Both the position numbers and the translations under genes were made by a program. This document shows, in pieces, positions 1 through 36,015 of a stretch of 54,341 nt of DNA. The stretch comes from Candidatus Parcubacteria bacterium (lineage in GTDB: Bacteria; Patescibacteriota; Minisyncoccia; Phycocordibacterales; CAIZLB01): the NCBI GenBank assembly GCA_039795875.1, contig JBDKKY010000002.1, forward strand, positions 1 to 54,341, in the 5' to 3' direction. Every line of letters begins with the position of its first letter. The first letter of the stretch is position 1. The notes beneath the pieces are model-generated. The model searched no databases, was not told where the DNA came from, and worked only from the letters and a program-made list of their open reading frames with translations.

Positions 1-207
1 CCAAGATTTTGAAAATCTCGAAGTTTGAGTAGGGGAATGGTACGTCCCAAGTGAATGTTCGGACTGGTTGGGTCAATACCAAGTTTAATACGAAGAGGTG
101 TCCCTTCTTTCAACTTTTTCTCTAGCTCATTTTTGTGAATAATCTCATCTACACCGCGATTGAGGAGTGTATCTATGAGTTGTTGTATGTTTGCAGGTTG
201 AGTCATG
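1..207 (-). CDS. tyrS: tyrosyl-tRNA synthetase, N-terminal part (gene runs off the window start)
   Basis: Not in the ORF track. My translation of the reverse strand from the ATG at 207-205 is [68 protein letters not shown]. The GIDPT...IHLG block is the class-I HIGH region, in the position typical of TyrRS N-termini. Confidence 0.7.
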
Positions 208-264
208 TACATAAGTATGTCGGGTTTTTGATTGTGTGGCAAGGGTATTTTGAGGGTTTTATAG

Positions 265-292
265 TTGACAATACAGCTAAATATGATATAAT
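265..292 (+). promoter_or_regulatory. sigma70-like promoter (TTGACA, 16 nt, TATAAT) for G+C-rich cassette 1
   Basis: ttgaca at 265-270 and tataat at 287-292. This predicts a ~120-nt leader before the ATG at 422. Confidence 0.5.
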
Positions 293-421
293 ATTTCCAG
301 CACTTTGAGATGCGTTTCTGTGATACCAGAAGACATTTTTGCCTCTAATTATTGGAGTTAAAGACGTCTTCTGGATTTGGTTGCCATAGTGGCAGCTGAT
401 ACACAGGGACACCCAAACGAA

Positions 422-1207
422 ATGAGCAAAAGAATCGTAAACATCCCAGTTAATCCCAACCGCAGTTATGAAGCGGTGCGAGTGCACGCTCTCATACGCT
501 TAGCCCGGACTATTCCAGGGCCGTGCAGTCTCCAGTTTATTGAACCAGGCGGTGATAACTTCGCTATTCTGGACCAAGGTGCGATGGCCTCAATCGACGC
601 AGAATCTTTGTTGGCGATGAGTCTCGAAAAACAATATGTTCCCTCTGAATCCCAACTCCTTGCTGCCTCCATTATCGCAAACGCACTTAAACATGCCTGG
701 ACCAGGCCAGATCCAATGGATGCTCTCAGGCGTCTCCGGGGCATTTTGAAGACGACCCCGCACATCGGTCTGATCGGTGAGATTACTCGCGCTAACGGGT
801 TCGTCGACAGTCATCATTCCCCTATCGTCGAGAAGCATCTACTGACAGGGGATACAGGAACTGGTCGCATCTGTTGGAGCATAAACCGCGAAGGGTTAAT
901 CCAGATACGTGTCGCCCGCGGCACTGAAGTCGCCGGAGATCGGGTCACCATCCTGATGATAGAGACTAAAGTTCTGGAGAACATGATTATTGATCCCGGA
1001 TTTTCAGTCTCAAGACACAATGCTGGGACGGCCCTGGAAATCCGACATCTGGAAGCTGCCGCCCCCATCCTCGCAGCCTTGCTCAGTCAATCGTCTCTCT
1101 GTGGTCACCCGGTTGATACTGATGACGCTCTTGGTCGGCTCGTTATGAAACTCCCCAAAGACCCAGAAGGTGAAGCGCTCAGGCAGGAAGTATGGGCTAC
1201 ATCCTAA
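422..1207 (+). CDS. orphan hypothetical protein, G+C-rich cassette 1 (alternative TTG start at 377)
   Basis: Frame stays open for ~830 nt in a locally G+C-rich segment, which is too long to be chance at this composition. Amino-acid composition is protein-like. No family motif recognised and no Shine-Dalgarno seen. The stop TAA at 1205-1207 abuts the 65-bp repeat. Confidence 0.6.
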   Translation: MSKRIVNIPVNPNRSYEAVRVHALIRLARTIPGPCSLQFIEPGGDNFAILDQGAMASIDAESLLAMSLEKQYVPSESQLLAASIIANALKHAWTRPDPMDALRRLRGILKTTPHIGLIGEITRANGFVDSHHSPIVEKHLLTGDTGTGRICWSINREGLIQIRVARGTEVAGDRVTILMIETKVLENMIIDPGFSVSRHNAGTALEIRHLEAAAPILAALLSQSSLCGHPVDTDDALGRLVMKLPKDPEGEALRQEVWATS

Positions 1208-1272
1208 GAGGTTCGAATCCTCACCCAACCCTATCAGGTTAAGAAGTGCCCGCGACTTCTTCTCCTGGTGGG
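1208..1272 (+). repeat. 65-bp module copy 1: tRNA 3-prime-fragment look-alike plus terminator stem
   Basis: gaggttcgaatcctcacccaaccctatcaggttaagaagtgcccgcgacttcttctcctggtggg. It matches 1834-1898 at 64 of 65 positions. It contains GAGG-TTCGAAT-CCTC (T-arm-like) followed by ACCCAACC-C (acceptor 3-prime-strand-like). Confidence 0.85.
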
Positions 1273-1281
1273 ATTTTTTTT
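1230..1281 (+). terminator. intrinsic terminator of cassette 1
   Basis: Stem CCUAU-CAGG-(UU)-AAGAAGU, loop GCCCGCG, then ACUUCUU-(CU)-CCUG-GUGGG, followed by a run of 8 T (1274-1281). Confidence 0.7.
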
Positions 1282-1282
1282 A

Positions 1283-1310
1283 TTTAAAATCTTAGATTGA
1301 TAAATATAAT
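1283..1310 (+). promoter_or_regulatory. candidate promoter for cassette 2 (TTTAAA, 16 nt, TATAAT)
   Basis: tttaaa at 1283-1288 and tataat at 1305-1310. An overlapping alternative is TTGATA 1297-1302, 17 nt, TATTGT 1320-1325. The context is AT-rich, so this could be fortuitous. Confidence 0.3.
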
Positions 1311-1365
1311 AATGAATGGTATTGTAACTTTCGTAATCCCGTTAAACCCCAGCCCCTTTTTTACT

Positions 1366-1728
1366 ATGAAAAATCGCTTCCCATATTATCTGGTTCTGAC
1401 CGTGGGTCACACTCAAGCCCGTGAGGATGGAATTCCTTGCCGCTTTTGCATGACTCTGACAATCGGAACGTTTGCTACCGACTTTTTAATCGCTGTCAGT
1501 CCATTTGGCGATATTAATGATCAAGGCGTGGTCGAACCATACATGCATTTGGAAACCTCGATGCTCGAACGTCGCGGTCTCATCACGAAAGCCGGTGAAC
1601 GTTTCCTGATTGACCTGTTCCGTCGGAACATCTATGGGAAGGAAGGTGTAACAGCCGCCTTCTTTCCGTTGATTGAAGGACAGTCCTTACCGCTCTTCTT
1701 GCCTCGTCAATTTGATGAGGTGGCCTAA
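1366..1728 (+). CDS. orphan hypothetical protein, cassette 2 (the ORF track extends it to 1297)
   Basis: The ATG at 1366 gives MKNRFPYYLVLTVGHTQAREDG... (120 aa). Composition is moderately G+C-rich. No recognisable motif and no Shine-Dalgarno. Confidence 0.5.
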   Translation: MKNRFPYYLVLTVGHTQAREDGIPCRFCMTLTIGTFATDFLIAVSPFGDINDQGVVEPYMHLETSMLERRGLITKAGERFLIDLFRRNIYGKEGVTAAFFPLIEGQSLPLFLPRQFDEVA

Positions 1729-1833
1729 TCCCAACCCCTCCAGAACCACATGGCCAAATCTAAGAAAACACCTGTCAAAAAGAAAACCTGGACCACCATG
1801 AAGGTCCAGCCCAAAAAGAAGTGAAATACTTCG

Positions 1834-1898
1834 GAGGTTCGAATCCTCACCCAACCCCATCAGGTTAAGAAGTGCCCGCGACTTCTTCTCCTGGTGGG
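1834..1898 (+). repeat. 65-bp module copy 2: tRNA 3-prime-fragment look-alike plus terminator stem
   Basis: Same 65 bp as 1208-1272, lying 626 bp downstream. The only difference is C at 1858 versus T at 1232. Confidence 0.85.
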
Positions 1899-1903
1899 TT
1901 TTT
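1856..1903 (+). terminator. intrinsic terminator of cassette 2
   Basis: Same long stem-loop as copy 1, followed by TTTTT (1899-1903). Confidence 0.7.
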
Positions 1904-2053
1904 CATTATATTTTATTTTAACTTTTCTTAAGGTTTTGTATGGCTCCTGTGTTTTATACTATACACATGAAAAATATTACCATTTCTCCCACCCCAAAAT
2001 TACAACACATTTTTTCTCGTGACAGGCCATCGGGATGGGAATATACTACCCGT

Positions 2054-2308
2054 ATGACCCCTAAGCTGAAGCAGATTATCAAAGAAGTAAAAAAACTTTC
2101 TGGAGAGGAGAGGGAGATTTTGACCAGCGTTATTTCAAGCATAGAATTGGCCGAAGTCTCAGAACCGGTTGAGGAGATCGAGGCGGCTTGGAATGAAGAA
2201 ATGATGCGGCGATTGAAGGAAATAGACGAGGGAAAAGTAAAGATGCTGAGCGAAGCGGAGTGGGATGCTACAATTGCCAAAAATCGTGCAAAATATAATC
2301 GTATCTAA
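2054..2308 (+). CDS. antitoxin-like 'addiction module component' protein (partner of RelE/ParE-type toxins)
   Basis: MTPKLKQIIKEVKKLSGEEREILTSVISSIEL...EIEAAWNEEMMRRLKEIDEGKVK. The L-S-x-E-E-R, acidic linker, AW-x-x-E and R-R-x-x-E-I/D-x-G pattern matches the small addiction-module antitoxin family. The ORF track start at 1940 is probably too far upstream. Confidence 0.6.
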   Translation: MTPKLKQIIKEVKKLSGEEREILTSVISSIELAEVSEPVEEIEAAWNEEMMRRLKEIDEGKVKMLSEAEWDATIAKNRAKYNRI

Positions 2309-2350
2309 GCCATATTCCTCAGTATTCATCCTGAGGCCTCAGAAGAAGGT

Positions 2351-2614
2351 TTGTGCACAGCAAGATATTATTACCAGCTTAGTTCAGAGCTAGGTGGTGA
2401 TTTTGATCATAAGCTAGAATCTCCTAAGGGTCTCATAAAAACAAATCCATATTTGTATCAAATTGGTAGGCTTAAAATTCGTAGAGTTGTACTCAGACGT
2501 TTTACGGAAAACTATATTGCCTATATTATCCGCCCAGGTGAAGTGTTTGTCTTGGCTGTGGGCCACGCCAAACGTCATCCGCTATACTTTAAGGAACACC
2601 TTAAAATAAGCTGA
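2351..2614 (+). CDS. RelE/ParE-family toxin (start codon uncertain, possibly N-terminally decayed)
   Basis: The C-terminal block IRRVVLRRFTENYIAYIIRPGEVFVLAVGHAKRHP is typical of ParE/RelE toxins. Toxin-like sequence (IFLSIHPEASEEGL..ARYYY) continues upstream in frame to the antitoxin stop, with no ATG. The only listed start is TTG at 2351. Confidence 0.55.
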   Translation: MCTARYYYQLSSELGGDFDHKLESPKGLIKTNPYLYQIGRLKIRRVVLRRFTENYIAYIIRPGEVFVLAVGHAKRHPLYFKEHLKIS

Positions 2615-2645
2615 AAATCCCCCTAATCTGTGCTAATATCAAAAA

Positions 2646-4385
2646 ATGAAAAACAATGAACCCATAGAGCATATTCGGCACTCACTCGCACACCTTTTGG
2701 CCGCTGCGGTATTGGATTTGTATCCAACAGCACAGGTGACGATTGGTCCGGCTATCGAAGATGGGTTTTACTATGATATCGACATGCCAAAGATTGGAGA
2801 TGATGATTTAAAGACTATCGAGGCAAAGATGAAAGAGATTCTGCCCACATGGACTTCCTTTGAAAAAATGGACGTTGATGTAGATTTTGCTCGTGATCAT
2901 TTTAAAAATAACCCTTACAAGATTGAGTTAATCAACGAGATTGTTGCTCGAGGGGAACAGATTACTTTGTACAAATCAGGAAACTTTATCGACCTATGTC
3001 GGGGAGGTCATGTTGAGGATATGAAAAATGTAGATCCTGAGTCATTTACTCTGACAAAGATCGCTGGAGCGTATTGGAGAGGTAATGAAAAGAATAAAAT
3101 GCTCACTCGTATTTATGGTTTTGCTTTTGAAAATAAAGTGGCTCTTGAGGCACATATGAATATGCTGGAAGAAGCCAAGAAGCGAGATCATAAAAAATTA
3201 GGAAAAGAATTGGGATTGTTTACATTCTCAGAGCTCGTTGGTCCAGGTCTTCCACTATGGACTCCAAAAGGTACCGTCCTTCGAGAGTCATTGAATGATT
3301 TTGTTATGTCACTTCGTGCCAAATATGGATATCAAAAAGTTTCTATTCCCCATATCACTAAAAAAGATCTGTATGAGAAATCAGGTCACTGGGCAAAATA
3401 CCAAGATGATTTATTTAAGATCGAGACACGAGAAAAACATGTGTATGTGATGAAGCCGATGAACTGCCCTCATCACACTCAGATTTTTGATTCAGAAATG
3501 CGAAGTTACCGAGATATGCCGCAACGATATTGTGAAACTACAGCTGTATATCGAGATGAGCAATCAGGAGAATTGTCAGGCCTTTCTCGAGTGCTTTGTA
3601 TTACACAAGATGATGCGCATGTATTCTGTCGAGTAAGTCAGATCAATGAAGAAGTAGAAAGTGTGTGGAATATTATTAATGAATTTTATGGAACATTCGG
3701 ATTTACCGAGATCATTCCTCGATGGTCACGGAGAGACCCAGAAACCCCAGAGAAGTATCTAGGGGATACAGGTAACTGGGATATTGCAGAAGAGACATTA
3801 AAAAATGTTATTTCGTCTCACACAAAGAATTGGATTGATGGTCCTGGAGAAGCAGCTTTTTACGGTCCAAAGATCGACTTCATGGCCAAAGATGCTCTTG
3901 GACGAAAACACCAAGTCGCAACTATTCAACTAGACTTTGTACAGCCATCACGATTTGAACTTACCTGCGTAAATGAGAAGGGAGAGAAGGAGGGTGTTGT
4001 AATGTTGCACGTAGCTATCATGGGATCTATTGAGCGATTCTTAAGTGTTGTGATCGAGCACTATGCTGGAGTATTTCCAACATGGCTTTCACCAGTGCAA
4101 GTCAAAGTTGTGCCGATCGGAGATAGACAAGGAGATTTTGCTCATGATGTATACACAGAATTGAAAAATGCAGGTATTCGTGCCGAGATTGATCAATCAA
4201 GTGAAAGTCTAGGCAAGAAAGTTCGGAATGCCAAAACAGAAAAGATTCCATATGTGATGGTGATTGGAGATAAGGAGATGGCATCAGGTGAGATGAGTCT
4301 CGAAGGACGAACAGAGAAGTTAGATCCAAAAACTATCTCAGATGTTATCGCGTTTCTAAAGAAGGAGATTGAGGAGAAGAAGTAA
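2646..4385 (+). CDS. thrS: threonyl-tRNA synthetase (no N-terminal TGS domain)
   Basis: 579 aa. It starts at the HSLAHLLAAAV editing-domain motif and has a class-II core (MNCPHHTQIF, RVLCITQDDAHVF) and an anticodon-binding C-terminus. Confidence 0.95.
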   Translation: MKNNEPIEHIRHSLAHLLAAAVLDLYPTAQVTIGPAIEDGFYYDIDMPKIGDDDLKTIEAKMKEILPTWTSFEKMDVDVDFARDHFKNNPYKIELINEIVARGEQITLYKSGNFIDLCRGGHVEDMKNVDPESFTLTKIAGAYWRGNEKNKMLTRIYGFAFENKVALEAHMNMLEEAKKRDHKKLGKELGLFTFSELVGPGLPLWTPKGTVLRESLNDFVMSLRAKYGYQKVSIPHITKKDLYEKSGHWAKYQDDLFKIETREKHVYVMKPMNCPHHTQIFDSEMRSYRDMPQRYCETTAVYRDEQSGELSGLSRVLCITQDDAHVFCRVSQINEEVESVWNIINEFYGTFGFTEIIPRWSRRDPETPEKYLGDTGNWDIAEETLKNVISSHTKNWIDGPGEAAFYGPKIDFMAKDALGRKHQVATIQLDFVQPSRFELTCVNEKGEKEGVVMLHVAIMGSIERFLSVVIEHYAGVFPTWLSPVQVKVVPIGDRQGDFAHDVYTELKNAGIRAEIDQSSESLGKKVRNAKTEKIPYVMVIGDKEMASGEMSLEGRTEKLDPKTISDVIAFLKKEIEEKK

Positions 4386-4386
4386 T

Positions 4387-4659
4387 ATGAAAAAATGGAT
4401 ATCAAATATTCTCATAGCTGTAAATGTTATACAGATTATTTGGATTCTAATATTATTAGTTGTTTATGGTTGGTATGTATATATGCCGTATTTAGTTATC
4501 CACGGCATATTTATCATACTAAGCATCATTGGATTTCTATCCACTGGTGGTTTTGGAAGAACTTCGAAGTTAACATTTTTCTTACTTGTGCTTCCTTTGG
4601 TATATTGTGGTGCGACTCTCTATTTCATCGTTGGTTATAAAATGGGGTTCATATATTAG
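4387..4659 (+). CDS. small integral membrane protein
   Basis: The ATG at 4387 gives MKKWISNILIAVNVIQIIWILILLVVYG..., with three hydrophobic spans. No family recognised. Confidence 0.5.
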   Translation: MKKWISNILIAVNVIQIIWILILLVVYGWYVYMPYLVIHGIFIILSIIGFLSTGGFGRTSKLTFFLLVLPLVYCGATLYFIVGYKMGFIY

Positions 4660-4682
4660 TCTATCCATGCTATATTCGTCTC

Positions 4683-5915
4683 ATGTCTTCGAGACCTCTC
4701 TCCTTTACTATCAAACACAAATCTACAAAATCACGTGCTCGGACAGGTGTGATTAAAACACCACATGGAGATATACAAACTCCAGCTTTTGTTCCTGTGG
4801 GAACTAAAGCAACCATAAAAGGTTTAACCCCAGAGATGGTTGTTTCGCTTGGTGCAGATTGTATTCTGGCAAACACCTATCATTTATATTTGCAACCTGG
4901 TCACGATATTATAAAAAAGCACGGAGGCCTTGGGAAGTTTATGGGTTGGAGTGGTCCCACATTTACCGACTCAGGTGGATTCCAGGCGTTTTCTCTTGGT
5001 GTTGCGCTTGGAAAAAATATCACTAAGTTCACCTCAAAAGCTCGACCTGGATATGACGAAATTGCTATTCAAAAGACTGGTCATAAAGCTGATCCAGATG
5101 CGCCCGCACTTCAGCCAGCCAAAGTAGATGAGCAAGGAGTGATGTTTCGATCTATTATCGATGGAAGCGCTCATTATTTTACACCAACAAAATCTATAGA
5201 AATTCAACAGGCGATCGGTGCCGACATTATGTTTGCATTTGATGAATGTACATCACCTCACGAACCAGTTGAATATCAAAAACGATCACTTGATAGAACC
5301 CACCGATGGGCGATGGAATCTCTAAAGACTCATGTTGATAATCCTGAATCATTTTCAAAGCAAGCTCTGTTTGGAATCATACAAGGCGGACGTCATGAAG
5401 AATTACGCAAAGAAAGTGCAAAAATCATTGCTGAGATGCAATACAACGGAGTCGAGTTTGATGGTTTTGGTATTGGTGGATCATTCGCCAAAGAAGATAT
5501 GATGACAGCGGTAGCTTGGGTCAATGAAATACTTCCAGAAAACAAACCTCGTCACTTACTCGGCATCGGTGAGCCTGCCGACATTGTCATGGCGGTTAAA
5601 GAGGGTTGTGACACATTTGATTGTGTGATGCCAACTCGAAATGCTCGGACAGGAACTGTCTTTATGCGAGATGACTTAGCTGAGTTTGGTTATACAAATC
5701 TGAATATGAGAAATGCCCAGTATGTCGAAGATATGAAGCCAATCGATGCACAATGCGAATGCTATACTTGTAAAAAATATACACGAAGTTATCTGGCCCA
5801 TCTATATCGAGCGCAAGAAATGTTGGCCGGAACTTTGGCTTCAATTCACAACCTGCAGTTCATGATCGATTTTGTAAAAAGACTTCGAGAAAGTATTGAA
5901 AGAGGGGAGATCTAG
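4683..5915 (+). CDS. tgt: queuine tRNA-ribosyltransferase
   Basis: RARTGVIKTPHGDIQTPAFVPVGT, LANTYHLYLQPG, TDSGGFQ, FDCVMPTRNAR and the zinc motif CECYTCKKYTRSYLAHL. Confidence 0.95.
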   Translation: MSSRPLSFTIKHKSTKSRARTGVIKTPHGDIQTPAFVPVGTKATIKGLTPEMVVSLGADCILANTYHLYLQPGHDIIKKHGGLGKFMGWSGPTFTDSGGFQAFSLGVALGKNITKFTSKARPGYDEIAIQKTGHKADPDAPALQPAKVDEQGVMFRSIIDGSAHYFTPTKSIEIQQAIGADIMFAFDECTSPHEPVEYQKRSLDRTHRWAMESLKTHVDNPESFSKQALFGIIQGGRHEELRKESAKIIAEMQYNGVEFDGFGIGGSFAKEDMMTAVAWVNEILPENKPRHLLGIGEPADIVMAVKEGCDTFDCVMPTRNARTGTVFMRDDLAEFGYTNLNMRNAQYVEDMKPIDAQCECYTCKKYTRSYLAHLYRAQEMLAGTLASIHNLQFMIDFVKRLRESIERGEI

Positions 5916-5998
5916 TGGCTGCGACCGTAGGCCTGATAAACATGAGGTGGTGAAGGAAAGCCTTGTGTTTTCCGAAAACGAACGAATGTTTATTATAT

Positions 5999-6186
5999 AA
6001 AAAAGAACCCATGGCGCCGGGACTTCGTGTGTGTAGCTTAAAGAGCAACGAAGGGGGGAGCGCACATGGGTTGCGTGTCGCGAAGGAGCTGATTCGCTCG
6101 GTTCCCGGGATGTAAAACAGAAAACCATCCGGGGAATTTGACTTCGACCAAAAAGGCACACGCTTTCCGCTCAAGGGTCTGTCTAG
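5999..6186 (-). ncRNA. orphan small RNA gene (~186 nt), identity unknown
   Basis: On the minus strand, a promoter TTGACA (6220-6215), 17 nt, TATTAT (6197-6192). Then a G+C-rich, ORF-poor body with several hairpins, for example UUCCCCGGAUG...CAUCCCGGGAA. A terminator hairpin (6026-6005) is followed by U6 (6004-5999). Confidence 0.45.
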
Positions 6187-14407: not shown

Positions 14408-15664
14408 TTATAATTGTTTGACCTCAAACTTTTTCTCAGTGACTTCGTTTTCTCCAATCACCGTTATGTTTTTGATGCCTAATTTTTCTGCCAATTTTAT
14501 ATTGTCGGGATATTTTCGAGAGGTGTAGTTAACAGCTACGTTTTTTCCTGTTTGCCGAAGCTCAGCCGCAACTTCATCAGCGTATACAACAGTGGCTTCG
14601 TTGTCATCGAGTACACAAACTAGAATCTCAGTCGCTGCCTGGTACGGAGGTATCAGGTTCCGTGATTCTAAGAAGTTTTGCATGGCCACATCACCATATC
14701 CAAAACCAACACCCGAGATAGATGATTCGTCAGCCGCTCCTTCAAAAATATCTACCAGATTGTCATATCGTCCACCGCCGAACAGTGCGCGATTATTTTG
14801 AGGATCGGTATCCTTAACTTCAAATACGAGACCTGTGTAATAATCCAATCCTCGAACAATATCTGTATCGAAAATGATATTTGCAATACCTTCTTTTTTG
14901 GCTAGAGCCACGGTGTCAAGAATGGCGTCAAGAGGTTCTTTTACTCCTGGCATATTTTTCATAAATGTCAGGTCAGATGAATCGTTCACATCCAAAAGTT
15001 TTTTATCAGAAATCTTGACATATTCAGCGGCAAATTCTTCGGCTGAAATTTTGTTTTTCTTATCTGTTAACTTTTGAAATGCTAAAGCCTGTTCGGTATT
15101 CAATTCATAATAATCAGTGTAGAGCGCATTGATAAAAGCTCGAGAGTTAACTCGTATCTCATAATCGCTGTCTTTAGCTTGAAATGCTTTCATGATGGTC
15201 GAGACTACTTGTAAGATCTCCACATCATATCGAGGGCTAGGTTTTTTGGTGAGTAGGTCGACGTTCAATTGCCAAAACTCTCTTAGTCTGCCTCGTTGTG
15301 GTCGTTCGTATCGGAAACAGTTTGGAATAGAGAAAAGTCGCAGTGGAAAACCAAGCTCGCGTTTTCGAGCTGCCACCATACGTGCCAATGTTGGAGTCAT
15401 CTCAGGACGCAGAGTAACTTCACGATCGCCTCGATCAGTAAATGTATATGATTGTGCATTCACAATCTCATCTCCAGATTTGGCCTTATAGATCTCAGTG
15501 TTTTCAAGCACAGAGGCATCATATTCTTCATATCCAAAAGATTGGACTGCTTTTCTCCATGTATCGAACATAAAATGTTGCACGAAAAGGTCGGTAGGGT
15601 AAAAATCACGAACCCCTTTATAAGATTCTGTTGATAGTTTTTTTGACGGGTCTTTTTCGGTCAT
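14408..15664 (-). CDS. hisS: histidyl-tRNA synthetase
   Basis: Class-II motifs: LRPEMTP, FRYERPQRGRLREFWQ, GGGRYDNL. Confidence 0.95.
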   Translation of the reverse strand: MTEKDPSKKLSTESYKGVRDFYPTDLFVQHFMFDTWRKAVQSFGYEEYDASVLENTEIYKAKSGDEIVNAQSYTFTDRGDREVTLRPEMTPTLARMVAARKRELGFPLRLFSIPNCFRYERPQRGRLREFWQLNVDLLTKKPSPRYDVEILQVVSTIMKAFQAKDSDYEIRVNSRAFINALYTDYYELNTEQALAFQKLTDKKNKISAEEFAAEYVKISDKKLLDVNDSSDLTFMKNMPGVKEPLDAILDTVALAKKEGIANIIFDTDIVRGLDYYTGLVFEVKDTDPQNNRALFGGGRYDNLVDIFEGAADESSISGVGFGYGDVAMQNFLESRNLIPPYQAATEILVCVLDDNEATVVYADEVAAELRQTGKNVAVNYTSRKYPDNIKLAEKLGIKNITVIGENEVTEKKFEVKQL

Positions 15665-15714: not shown

Positions 15715-16470
15715 ATGAGCGACGTCTTCATGAATATTCCTAAGGAGGGTATGTCTTACAGTGATTTGGACATGAAACACGTAGAAGAGGGATATCTCTC
15801 GATTTATAAGAAGGTTGGCTGCACACCACTACAGGTACAAGAAGAGATCCAGGCCCAGATCGACGTGTCGAGTACGATGACATATGTCGGTCGGTTGGAT
15901 CCTATGGCTGAAGGTTGGTTTGATATAGTGTTCAATGGCGATATGACGCTTAAAGAGAAATTGATGGCCAAAGATAAAACCTATGAGATCGATATACTAT
16001 TTGGATTCAATACAGATACTGGAGACATCTTGGGCAAAGTGGTGGAAAAAGGCAAGGGTGACATCTCACCGGTAACGTTGCGAGCGATTCTGCCTTCGTA
16101 TGTTGGTAAATTTATTTGGAATTATCCAGCTTATTCTTCGCCGATGCTGGGTAAGAAAGAAGGAGATATTATAAAACAAAAGGAAATTGAAATTTATTCT
16201 ATAGATTTTTTAAAGGAAAGAATAATTTCAGCTCAAGATTTATTAGGGGAGATTACAGAAAAACTGAGTTTATCAAAAATGACAGGGGACTTTAGATTGG
16301 ATGAGGTTCAAGGGGCATGGCAGGAAAAATTGGAAACCCTGACAGGGTCTTTTGTTGTTGTAACAATAAAAGTTCATTGTTCTTCAGGAGCATATATGAG
16401 AACATTGGCAGAAAAATTGGGCCAAGAATTATCGACGACGGCGTTGGCTTTTGCTATTAAGAGAGTCTAA
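15715..16470 (+). CDS. truB: tRNA pseudouridine-55 synthase-like protein (short TruB)
   Basis: VGRLDPMAEG catalytic Asp motif, KTYEIDILFGFNTDTGD, and HCSSGAYMRTLAEKLG, which resembles CSKGTYIR of TruB. Confidence 0.75.
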   Translation: MSDVFMNIPKEGMSYSDLDMKHVEEGYLSIYKKVGCTPLQVQEEIQAQIDVSSTMTYVGRLDPMAEGWFDIVFNGDMTLKEKLMAKDKTYEIDILFGFNTDTGDILGKVVEKGKGDISPVTLRAILPSYVGKFIWNYPAYSSPMLGKKEGDIIKQKEIEIYSIDFLKERIISAQDLLGEITEKLSLSKMTGDFRLDEVQGAWQEKLETLTGSFVVVTIKVHCSSGAYMRTLAEKLGQELSTTALAFAIKRV

Positions 16471-34606: not shown

Positions 34607-34688
34607 TAAACAGAAATTGATATAATTGTAAGGACATGGCCGCCTCTACTACTTGTTAAAATCTCTTTGTGGATAACTTGGGCTTGAC

Positions 34689-34716
34689 TTGACACAAAAT
34701 CCATATGTCGTATAAT
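34689..34716 (+). promoter_or_regulatory. consensus sigma70 promoter (TTGACA, 16 nt, TATAAT) of the G+C-rich secreted-protein gene
   Basis: ttgaca at 34689-34694 and tataat at 34711-34716. AGGAG at 34763-34767 lies in the ~60-nt leader. Confidence 0.5.
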
Positions 34717-34782
34717 GTATTGTAGGCATACCCCTGTACCTTGATATCGTTTCAAGCGTATTAGGAGTTGCATCTACACCCT

Positions 34783-35922
34783 ATGAACACCACCACACAG
34801 GCCAGAGTGATCTGGCTGGTTTGCCTTCTGGCGTCGCTCTTCGGAGTTGCACAGAAGGGTATGGGAGACCCGACCAATGCCGTTGAGGCAGTAGTCGTGG
34901 CCGAACGTCTGAGCCTCGAGAGGCCAGACCCCCGCAAGCCATTCACCTCGTGGATGGCTCCAACAGGAGAGGAGGCCTCACAGCCAAGTCTCTACCTCAC
35001 TGAGCCCAAAGCTCAGATCAACAACCCTAACACGCGGTTCTATATTTCAGTGCTGATCCGGTTTCGCATCAAAGCGACAGGGGAATGGGTAGCTATCAAG
35101 CAGCCCAATCCAACGAACCTCTCGTTTAGTTTCAATGGCCGAAAGTATCGTGAAGGTTATGCGCCCGCTTCGGTGGGCGGCGCCTTCAACATACTCGCGA
35201 CCAACTCGGTCTATACCGATGTGGCTACTCCAGACCCGAACCCGACAACGGGGAAGGCTTGGATCTATGGCGTCCGAAATGGCGCCATTGTCACAACGGC
35301 TGGGACGAAAGTCTCGTTGACTGAAGCGGACGGAGCGGTACGCCGCAATCCAGGAGAAGGCGATTTCCTGGTAAACCCAAATGTCGGTCTGGAGATCGAC
35401 GAATTCTGGGTGGTAGGGGCTGAACAGAAGCTGTCAACAGGATTTGTGAACGCTGCTAACAACACGTTCGCCTTCTGGCAGTCGTTCAATATCCCCTTTG
35501 ATATGGTGATCGAGGTCACGAATTCGGTTGCCGTTGATGCGGCACTGAACACCCAAAACGGCTGTCGGTACTTTCCCGACTACGGAGCTTTCCGTTTTCC
35601 CACGATATACTGTGGGACACAGGATGGACCAGTCCGCCCTGTGCTCGAGCTTGCAACCGACTTGCGCCGCCTGACTCTCCGACATGGAAAGTTTGGTGAT
35701 TGGATCGTCCAAGGCTCTGGAGACATGGCCTCGGGGTGGTTCAACCTCCCCGGCTACAAGTTCCAGGCTCCACCGGACTTCTTCCTTGAAGATCGTCGAG
35801 ATATGACCATCGAGCTCCCCGCTCCTGGTCAGATCACGACACCTCCGCCAACGAGGATGTATTTTAGGGCATACTCGCCGAAACCCTACACACCGCCGTA
35901 TGTGCTGAGTTCACCTCCCTGA
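34783..35922 (+). CDS. orphan secreted protein encoded by a G+C-rich insert (the ORF track TTG start is at 34768)
   Basis: 379 aa. Signal-peptide-like N-terminus MNTTTQARVIWLVCLLASLFGVAQ, a Pro-rich C-terminus, G+C strikingly above both flanks, and no family motif recognised. Confidence 0.6.
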   Translation: MNTTTQARVIWLVCLLASLFGVAQKGMGDPTNAVEAVVVAERLSLERPDPRKPFTSWMAPTGEEASQPSLYLTEPKAQINNPNTRFYISVLIRFRIKATGEWVAIKQPNPTNLSFSFNGRKYREGYAPASVGGAFNILATNSVYTDVATPDPNPTTGKAWIYGVRNGAIVTTAGTKVSLTEADGAVRRNPGEGDFLVNPNVGLEIDEFWVVGAEQKLSTGFVNAANNTFAFWQSFNIPFDMVIEVTNSVAVDAALNTQNGCRYFPDYGAFRFPTIYCGTQDGPVRPVLELATDLRRLTLRHGKFGDWIVQGSGDMASGWFNLPGYKFQAPPDFFLEDRRDMTIELPAPGQITTPPPTRMYFRAYSPKPYTPPYVLSSPP

Positions 35923-35975
35923 CGTCTGAACCGCGTCAACCGATGGCCCAAAAATAAGCCCATCAAAAATTCACC

Positions 35976-36015
35976 CCGCCCGCTTCTGGCAACAGAAGTG
36001 AGCGGTGTTTTTTTT
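35976..36015 (+). terminator. intrinsic terminator of the G+C-rich gene
   Basis: CCGCCCGCTTCTG-GCAA-CAGAAGTGAGCGG stem-loop with a GNRA-like loop, followed by T8 (36008-36015). Confidence 0.7.

Follow-up and report, generated by a model that had tools for sequence, protein, structure and literature searches.

In a 54,341-nucleotide stretch of DNA (the window) from a Patescibacteria (candidate phyla radiation, CPR) bacterium, so placed by the relatives of its ThrS protein, we find two orphan-gene units between tyrS and thrS that share a 65-bp module at their 3′ ends. To judge from sequence comparison, this module is a common 3′ untranslated end in which a 15- to 17-nt mimic of the tRNA T-arm is followed by an intrinsic terminator. 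Its conserved functional core appears to be the T-arm only, and this core is not specific to the window's two cassettes. A first-pass annotation had interpreted the interval as a horizontally acquired, cassette-like array with a shared 3′ module. That interpretation is partly supported as a whole; it overlooked the tRNA T-arm consensus GGTTCGAATCC at the start of the module, as well as the absence of the entire segment from ~247 to 2610, including a putative toxin-antitoxin pair, from the nearest relatives.

We refer to the two closest species representatives as L004 and L005 (ThrS 88% and 86% identical, respectively); relatives nearer than these come from raw assemblies alone (L084, L085, L086, L089, and others). 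All examples of the module belong to a handful of closely related metagenomic contigs.

The repeated module and its T-arm core

The module forms part of a direct repeat (1208-1294 and 1834-1920; spacing 626 bp) that is 90% identical over 87 nt. We confirm the first-pass observation that a 64/65-identical core occurs exactly two times, at 1208-1272 and 1834-1898. Each half of the module likewise occurs exactly two times in 54 kb, with zero occurrences expected by chance. The only difference between the core copies, T1232 vs. C1858, turns a G.U into a G-C pair in the terminator stem. Module 1 folds at -28.5 kcal/mol (z = -3.5) and module 2 at -31.2 kcal/mol (z = -4.3). Both contain the G+C-rich hairpin and U-run of an intrinsic terminator; a simple terminator scan did not flag them, owing to the internal loop. 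The T-arm is followed by ACCCAACCC, which in the second copy can be read as ACCCAAC-C-CCA.

We rejected the module as a tRNA or transfer-messenger RNA (tmRNA) gene of the form GGTTCGAATCC, ACCCAAC, C, CCA, since ARAGORN and Rfam were negative and an acceptor partner is lacking. Nowhere in the 54-kb window does ARAGORN find a tRNA or tmRNA gene, in line with the first-pass statement that no intact tRNA lies nearby, nor does it find any in L084 to L090; Rfam gives no match at E ≤ 1 over window positions 1-6000. The best upstream complement of the 7 nt after the T-arm reaches four to six of seven positions in all 13 modules, no better than random (95% of positions reach 5/7). An exact search for the T-arm with its following 7-10 nt, as a trace of a source tRNA, gave zero or three chance matches inside genes in 185,579 species genomes, and none in viral contigs. 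Degenerate module patterns gave no match in metagenome and genome collections, and three other module types gave none in viral contigs. One stretch within the window, GGTTGGGT at 66-73, exactly complements ACCCAACC behind the T-arm, probably by chance; it was discarded as an acceptor 5′ strand, lying inside tyrS and upstream of the unit 1 promoter.

The 15 nt of the T-arm are invariant in nine further copies, found in L084, L085, L086, L089, and L090. In L084, L085, L089, and L090, two open reading frames (ORFs), ORF-A and a homolog of the window's ORF2, are each followed by GGAGGTTCGAATCCTCC and then by different terminators (mA and mB, respectively). Across the ORF1, ORF-A, and ORF2 copies, the central 15 nt are invariant and the flanks only loosely alignable. 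The terminator type tracks the upstream ORF: m1 occurs with ORF1 (window and L086), mA with ORF-A, and mB with ORF2.

A hairpin scan revealed two more T-arm copies in L084 and L089, a few kilobases upstream, between infC and a PLD-tyrS pair. This region holds a two-gene unit for small membrane proteins (167 and 109 aa) with a T-arm mimic after each gene (L084 4840-5850; L089 1310-2310). The copy behind the 167-aa ORF (ORF-C1), GGCGGTTCAATCCCGTC, is intercistronic, has no terminator, and lies 20 nt before the next ATG. The copy at the 109-aa ORF (ORF-C2), GACGGTTCGAACCCGTC, overlaps the TAG stop codon, and the terminator behind it aligns with the window module, specifically with the unit 1 terminator, in both genomes. 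The T-arm therefore follows five ORF families that are mutually without detectable similarity: ORF1, ORF-A, ORF2, ORF-C1, and ORF-C2.

The stems differ among these sites (GGAGG/CCTCC, GGCGG/CCGTC, GGCAG/CTGCC, and GACGG/CCGTC). Among eight distinct versions, 95% of stem cells are paired, and three of the five pairs have changed on both sides. The loop keeps T54, T55, C56, A58, and Y60, with variation only at R57 and N59 (TTCRANY). Orthologous sites of L084 and L089 differ by a compensatory change from G-C to A-U and by further changes from G.U to G-C and from G-C to G.U. All copies lie on the sense strand, from a 1-nt overlap with the stop codon to 14 nt past it.

In 1.09 Mb of related loci, 48 out of 67 five-bp T-arm hairpins fall inside ARAGORN genes. 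Twelve of the 19 others are in L084, L085, L089, and L090; the rest belong to masked tRNAs or to other loci that are unrelated to these. Within the window, the T-arm motif is confined to the two modules. The motif GGTTCRANYCC, outside tRNA genes and at ORF ends, is matched by GGTTCGAATCC, GGTTCAATCC, and GGTTCGAACCC. Such a T-arm tag is unusual and is seen in this narrow lineage only. Some distant relatives carry tRNA-Val(GAC) ~520 bp upstream of thrS, with a T-arm of the same GAGGTTCGAATCCTC core (L042 5404-5480, L046 5401-5477, and L068 5300-5376).

At the ORF-A and ORF2 modules, a small hairpin predicted to stack on the T-arm has the stop codon within its loop or next to it. The hairpin of the window folds in the ORF-A modules of L084, L085, and L089 as well.

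Module 2 is a hybrid. Its left flank is that of the ORF-A module, AAGAAGTGAAATACTTCG together with the 5′ G of the stem, and its right flank, made up of the 3′ A, ACCCAACCC, and the terminator, is shared with module 1. Since module 2 joins the ORF-A left flank to the module 1 right flank, the crossover falls inside the 15 invariant nucleotides. The alignment is best explained by one recombination or gene-conversion event nucleated at the T-arm, which would have swapped the ORF-A terminator for that of ORF1 and so produced the duplicate.

Orphan units of the tyrS-thrS spacer

The coding parts of the two units are G+C-rich, as the first-pass annotation had stated: G+C is 52.4% in ORF1 and 48.5% in ORF2, and the window averages 41.9% (SD 3.2%, 800-bp windows). 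The G+C content at third codon positions is 0.52 and 0.50, respectively, vs. 0.34 in thrS. Neither protein has a recognizable family or fold, again as first noted (Pfam, PHROG, PADLOC, NCBIfam, and Foldseek), and a search of IMG/VR brought up no relatives. The features of the locus are listed in Table 1.

Table 1. Features of the tyrS-thrS interval (window coordinates)
Feature	Position	Strand	Remarks
tyrS 5′ end, left native flank	1..207	-	Aligns to tyrS 5′ ends of L004, L005, L084, and L085
Accessory insertion	247..2610		Alignment gap vs. L004 and L005
Unit 1 promoter	265..292	+	TTGACA-16-TATAAT with upstream TG; 12/12 consensus match
ORF1 structured 5′ leader	294..421	+	Hairpins 326-374 and 377-400, plus outer stem involving the AGGGA / AUG region
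ORF1 orphan protein	422..1207	+	261 aa from ATG 422; 276 aa from TTG 377
Module 1 T-arm mimic	1208..1222	+	GAGG-TTCGAAT-CCTC, directly after TAA stop; folds as hairpin
Unit 1 intrinsic terminator	1230..1281	+	Two-tier hairpin 1230-1272, then T8 run
Unit 2 probable promoter	1297..1325	+	TTGATA-17-TATTGT with TG; alternative TTTAAA-16-TATAAT at 1283-1310
ORF2 orphan protein	1366..1728	+	120 aa; purifying selection
3′ remnant of ORF-A-type gene	1729..1824	+	Holds 24-codon Lys-rich mini-ORF 1750-1824 (TGA stop 9 nt before module 2)
Small hairpin	1818..1832	+	GAAGU-GAAAU-ACUUC; contains mini-ORF / ORF-A stop codon; stacks on T-arm
Module 2 T-arm mimic	1834..1848	+	Same 15 nt as module 1
Unit 2 intrinsic terminator	1856..1903	+	Copy of unit 1 terminator; hairpin 1856-1898, then T5 run
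Antitoxin-like gene (Unstab_antitox)	1940..2308	+	PF09720 E = 2.7e-7, above curated cut-off; TIGR02574 E = 3.5e-4, below its cut-off
ParE/RelE-like toxin candidate	2351..2614	+	PF05016 only E = 0.1; adjoins antitoxin; stop at right junction of insertion
thrS, right native flank	2646..4385	+	ThrS proteins of relatives 86-96% identical

The promoter, structured leader, and ORF described for unit 1 in the first-pass annotation all stand. The leader (296-425) folds at -46.5 kcal/mol, z = -5.5 relative to shuffles, and the TAA of ORF1 (1205-1207) abuts module 1. A search of 1.84 billion representative proteins yields only P0005 (41% identity) and P0013 (~30%) as relatives of ORF1. P0005 is encoded at the same locus in L086 and L087, and the P0013 gene follows rplK in L088. 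Three genomes have ORF1 intact. Searches of Pfam, PHROG, PADLOC, and NCBIfam returned nothing for ORF1, PDB sequence profiles were empty, and its AlphaFold model (predicted local distance difference test, pLDDT, 65) has no Foldseek match at E ≤ 1e-3 in PDB or BFVD. Many matches to ORF1 residues ~25-70 (window 494-631) do occur in giant proteins (700-4300 aa) that contain SdrD-B/Cna-B-like repeats, with summed E values as low as 2.6e-20. This is a short 'IPG..S.QF..P.G.NF' resemblance, weaker in P0005, and we judged it uninformative and not a sign of homology.

Unit 1 is a mosaic. Compared with L086, identity is 73% in tyrS, 69% in the spacer, 97% in the promoter, 90% in the leader, 47-54% in ORF1, and 96% in the visible part of the module. 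The promoter, leader, and 3′ module are thus kept better than the neighboring housekeeping gene, and the protein between them has diverged to 41% identity. A third ORF1-family gene occurs at another locus, downstream of rplK in L088 (598-1500; GCA_964368945.1, CAYJDM010000027.1), with the same promoter and leader and an ordinary terminator. Its leader has the same architecture with both hairpins, and eight pairs are changed on both sides. The unit 1 leader structure is therefore conserved with covariation, despite having no Rfam match. Since L088 carries the ORF1-type promoter and leader downstream of rplK, the leader-ORF unit has evidently moved between loci. Leader RNA pattern searches found only the known L088 contig among genomes, and none in metagenomes. 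A stretch upstream of ATG 422, 'ADTQGHPNEM', was considered as the N terminus of the protein and rejected: It is out of frame in L088, so the constraint upstream of ATG 422 is on RNA or DNA. The predicted outer pairings of the leader with the AGGGA and AUG region suggest control of translation start. The two independent assemblies of ORF1 homologs both end within ~25 nt of the T-arm start (L086 2558-2582 and L087 2536-2540), which may reflect strain heterogeneity or a repeat beyond.

Unit 2 has the promoter candidate, the 120-aa ORF2, and the mini-ORF stop 9 nt ahead of the module that had been described for it. From ~1315, its -10 box and 5′ untranslated region share homology with the regions that hold the ORF2 promoter in L084 and L085 (TTGACG-17-TAGTAT). 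ORF2 has three homologs of 67%-71% identity, among them P0003 and P0004 (67%-68%). An intact copy is present in L089, and all of these lie in the tyrS-thrS locus. Where dS (synonymous divergence) is unsaturated, the ratio of nonsynonymous to synonymous divergence (dN/dS) is 0.09-0.12, which indicates that ORF2 is a real gene. ORF2 has no match in Pfam, PHROGs, PADLOC, NCBIfam, or PDB sequence profiles, and Foldseek finds nothing for its AlphaFold model (pLDDT 63) at E ≤ 1e-3 in PDB.

The mini-ORF, which the first-pass annotation had listed as part of unit 2, turns out to be no gene and to be the 3′ remnant of a third gene family, ORF-A, fused behind ORF2: The segment 1729-1824 aligns to the last ~95 nt of ORF-A in L084, L085, and L089, and the last ~35 nt are nearly identical. 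ORF-A itself encodes 158-182 aa with a Lys-rich tail and evolves fast, with 76% identity between genomes in which ORF2 is 94% identical (dN/dS 0.24). We found nothing for ORF-A in Pfam, PHROGs, PADLOC, or NCBIfam, and nothing for ORF-C1 or ORF-C2 in NCBIfam. ORF1, ORF-A, and ORF2 were also compared as distant homologs of one another and rejected as such (hhalign probability 0.2%). A third copy of 'CCCAACCCC', at 1730-1743, lies inside the ORF-A remnant and is most likely there by chance.

The claim that the interval is an accessory insertion is upheld by comparison with relatives. Window positions 1-245 and 2601-2698 align to L004 5699-5943 and 5956-6053, and L005 aligns likewise. In both genomes the aligned flanks are only ~12-16 bp apart, and the starts of tyrS and thrS, which are adjacent there, are ~95 bp apart. 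The 2.36-kb insertion of the window (~247-2610) is missing from both. The content of the interval varies among L084, L085, L089, and L091. In L084 and L089 it comprises ORF-A (181-182 aa), an ORF2 homolog, an AAA_33/Zeta-like kinase, and His_Phos_1; in L085, ORF-A (158 aa) and an ORF2 homolog; and in L086 and L087, an ORF1 homolog directly adjoining tyrS (called tRNA-synt_1b in L084, L086, and L089). In L091, whose short contig ends before tyrS, thrS is preceded by other small ORFs that are unrelated to these. L092, L093, L095, and L096 (ThrS 77%-79% identical) show neither the tyrS adjacency nor the cassettes. The tyrS-thrS spacer is well supported as a hypervariable accessory islet in this Patescibacteria lineage, made of independent orphan-gene units that each bear a T-arm mimic ahead of the terminator. 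In the window, this islet consists of unit 1, unit 2, and the putative toxin-antitoxin pair. Of the cassette-like array originally proposed, the independent promoter-ORF-terminator units are borne out, and the bounding of the array by the module is not: The outer edges of the islet are without a T-arm.

Of the toxin-antitoxin pair that the first-pass annotation placed behind unit 2, the antitoxin holds (PF09720), and the ParE-like toxin is only weakly matched; it is called a candidate because of its position next to the antitoxin. The defense or host-interaction role proposed for the cargo is pure conjecture (PADLOC, no matches). Among 10 other ORFs of the window that were scanned for recombinases, none is one.

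Several further observations concern the islet and the window. The AAA_33/Zeta-toxin-like kinase and His_Phos_1 phosphatase lie between the cassettes and thrS (L084 9403-10495, L089 5863-6955, and L090 627-1719; G+C 38%), in the position held by the toxin-antitoxin pair in the window; PADLOC gives only a weak VakA match. In L091 (1-720; a relative with 83% ThrS identity), two copies of a small ORF motif, LLDPDGNR-SFYL-R-SDGEW-W...WL, lie upstream of thrS, representing different cargo in the same hotspot. The most G+C-rich stretch of the window (34768-35922; 55%) holds another orphan ORF, which encodes 384 aa and has a TTGACA/TATAAT-like promoter (~34686-34716) and a terminator (~35975-36010) to itself. 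This ORF lacks a T-arm, matches nothing in Pfam or NCBIfam, and may be a second foreign gene.

Proposed RNA-level role and rival explanations

We favor an RNA-level role for the T-arm, giving it about an even chance, because of the strand and position bias of the copies, the covariation of the stem with the kept T-loop consensus, the G.U variant, and the intercistronic copy without a terminator. The T-arm mimic would tag mRNAs from a set of orphan genes that are G+C-rich and probably foreign, and would serve as a binding or recognition site for a T-arm-reading factor, whether TruB, another tRNA-handling enzyme, or a cassette-encoded partner. A terminating ribosome would have to melt the mimic, and folding could couple to translation. 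TruB reads tRNA T-arms, and the window encodes a TruB-family pseudouridine synthase (15715-16470; PF01509, E = 2e-14) next to hisS (14408-15664). Bacterial TruB modifies stem-loops carrying GUUCNANNC in vitro (PMC13492117).

Several points weigh against this role. In bacteria, TruB targets tRNAs only, and it binds isolated stem-loops weakly (PMC13492117). The covariation fits a single-stranded DNA hairpin equally well; moreover, the hairpins at ORF-C1 and ORF-C2 come from a scan that requires pairing, so the covariation between sites is partly ascertainment, although the orthologous comparisons are unaffected. The copies of the window and L086 lose the fifth stem pair (A.A or G.A), which leaves 4 bp. 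The independent examples are few, about five unit types in four or five closely related genomes. A site-specific recombinase would also give a crossover exactly within the T-arm. Finally, the P0013 unit in L088 combines an ORF1-type leader with an ordinary terminator and lacks the T-arm; genes of the ORF1 family can thus do without the tag, and leader and T-arm are separable.

The T-arms could instead be relic integration scars, i.e., partial tRNA 3′ ends (att repeats) from a succession of tRNA-targeting integrative elements that have lost their integrases and target tRNA, with no present function. Such scattering of partial tRNAs through islands is documented for tycheposons (10.1101/2020.12.28.424599). 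An exact tRNA T-arm, a module 2 that reads T-arm, ACCCAAC, C, CCA, and a T-arm plus terminator that looks like the 3′ end of a displaced tRNA together with the terminator of that tRNA are all as expected of scars. So are the insertion itself and the tRNA-Val(GAC) with the same T-arm core upstream of thrS in distant relatives. However, neutral relics would decay evenly, and here the flanks have diverged around 15 nt that are invariant or covary. The copies all lie on the coding strand and no more than 14 nt from a stop codon, and one, which has no terminator, separates two cistrons. In the 54-kb window and in L084 to L090 we found neither an intact tRNA nor a tmRNA, no acceptor-like sequence is conserved after the T-arm, the module's sequence ends no tRNA in 185,579 species genomes, and the called genes of L084 and L089 include no integrase. 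We consider scars unlikely.

Of the two functions that the first-pass annotation had suggested for the module, an RNA 3′-end element agrees with the T-arm hairpin and intrinsic terminator. An integron-like acquisition site is not favored because the islet edges are without a T-arm and the terminator type travels with the upstream ORF. In a more general form, the T-arm (5-bp inverted repeats with a 7-bp spacer) might be the core for a tyrosine recombinase, or for a hairpin-reading single-strand recombinase, encoded elsewhere and shuffling promoter-ORF cassettes in an integron-like or pdif-module-like manner. The symmetry of the T-arm and anticodon arm is the classic core of tRNA-targeting integrases, reportedly described as such by Williams in 2002. 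In favor of this, the crossover of the hybrid module 2 falls precisely within the 15-nt T-arm, close relatives differ in what the locus contains, and the end of two independent ORF1-homolog assemblies within ~25 nt of the T-arm fits population heterogeneity. Against this, one hybrid can come from gene conversion or microhomology, the stem sequences vary between sites in a way that a sequence-specific recombinase would not tolerate, and the terminator type follows the upstream ORF rather than the downstream cassette. Neither the outer islet borders nor the AAA_33/His_Phos_1 and toxin-antitoxin insertions are bounded by T-arms; the cassettes have their own promoters with no attI or intI equivalent, and no recombinase is seen in the loci. 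We regard both the recombination core and the cassette shuffling as quite unlikely.

That there is nothing special here (a generic terminator repeat, an assembly chimera, or chance, with noncoding ORFs) is very improbable and already largely refuted. The contig is of metagenome origin, and the simple terminator scan missed the modules. But only two copies exist in 54 kb and neither is behind a native gene, which also speaks against the generic repeat after many native genes that the first-pass annotation had allowed for. The independent assemblies L084, L085, L089, L090, L086, and L087 share the layout of ORF, T-arm, and terminator. We estimate that 65 nt would contain an exact match to the 11-nt T-loop consensus ~3e-5 times at random. 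It is very improbable that a frame would stay open for 830 nt at 52% G+C by accident, and the dN/dS of ~0.1 for ORF2 contradicts the further suggestion that both ORFs might lack coding signal.

The RNA-level role can be taken a step further, to the isolated T-arm as a kind of bacterial mRNA tag not described before, with which a mobile set of orphan genes would use a minimal mimic of tRNA to hand its transcripts to the tRNA-handling machinery. We think this extension a long shot. Candidate readers of such a tag are TruB, TrmA, ribosomal tRNA-elbow readers, and RNase P acting as with an external guide sequence, and the outcome could be stabilization, processing, translational coupling, or export of the transcript.

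Known systems and significance

The locus resembles several known systems in part. Integron cassette arrays are tandem small ORFs, each with a structured imperfect palindrome, and clusters of attC sites lacking integron-integrases (CALIN) have no adjacent integrase. The tandem small ORFs and imperfect palindromes, the putative toxin-antitoxin pair nearby, and the lack of an adjacent integrase are shared here. Unlike in integrons, each unit has its own sigma-70-like promoter and terminator, no attI or intI is seen, and the element is internal to the transcription unit; it is a conserved 17-nt T-arm rather than an attC site with R″/L″/L′/R′ boxes, and the array edges are not at the element. Like tmRNA (ssrA), the units combine a reading frame with a T-arm near the 3′ end and have their own promoter and terminator. 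Unlike tmRNA, they have no acceptor stem, G3:U70 pair, pseudoknots, or tag-peptide frame, and the ORFs are ordinary proteins of 109-276 aa.

The tycheposon islands of Prochlorococcus (10.1101/2020.12.28.424599) are similar in their small cargo of unknown function, variable island, and tRNA 3′-part repeats in direct orientation, as well as in the streamlined genome with few classical mobile elements. In contrast to those islands, we see no intact target tRNA and no integrase; the fragments here are T-arms only, under apparent selection, and on the sense strand right after the stop. As for an island flanked by att repeats, the insertion is evident, and the T-arm repeats lie inside the islet, not at its borders.

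In plant mitochondria, t-elements are non-tRNA occurrences of the pseudouridine-arm motif GGTTCRANYCC at or after the ends of reading frames (nad6, ccmC, and orf138) that act at the RNA level and define mRNA ends (PMC1920247). Like them, the modules carry GGTTCRANYCC at or just past ORF ends. However, t-elements form a tRNA-like cloverleaf of ~74 nt with an acceptor stem, cut by RNase P or RNase Z, whereas here there is a T-arm alone with no acceptor partner, followed by a conventional intrinsic terminator, in a bacterial host and not an organelle. The eukaryotic enzymes Pus4 and TRUB1 recognize the GUUCNANNC consensus in a short stem-loop of mRNA, as known for eukaryotic mRNAs (PMC13492117). 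As in such targets of the TruB family, a T-loop-like stem-loop is present in the predicted mRNA, and the window encodes TruB.

The CPR/Patescibacteria have tiny genomes full of genes of unknown function, and little is understood of how they acquire and regulate accessory genes. The tyrS-thrS locus is a defined hotspot between two essential genes, with content that turns over among close relatives. Should the T-arm work at the DNA level, it would be a minimal site for exchanging cassettes by recombination, in a phylum with few mobile elements. Should it work at the RNA level, it would be the bacterial equivalent of t-elements in organelles or of T-loop-like sites in eukaryotic mRNAs, as well as a simple handle for finding the foreign genes of this lineage. 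Were the tag reading true, the T-arm, together with the ultra-conserved ORF1 leader, would represent a new class of cis-acting RNA elements bracketing fast-evolving CPR genes.

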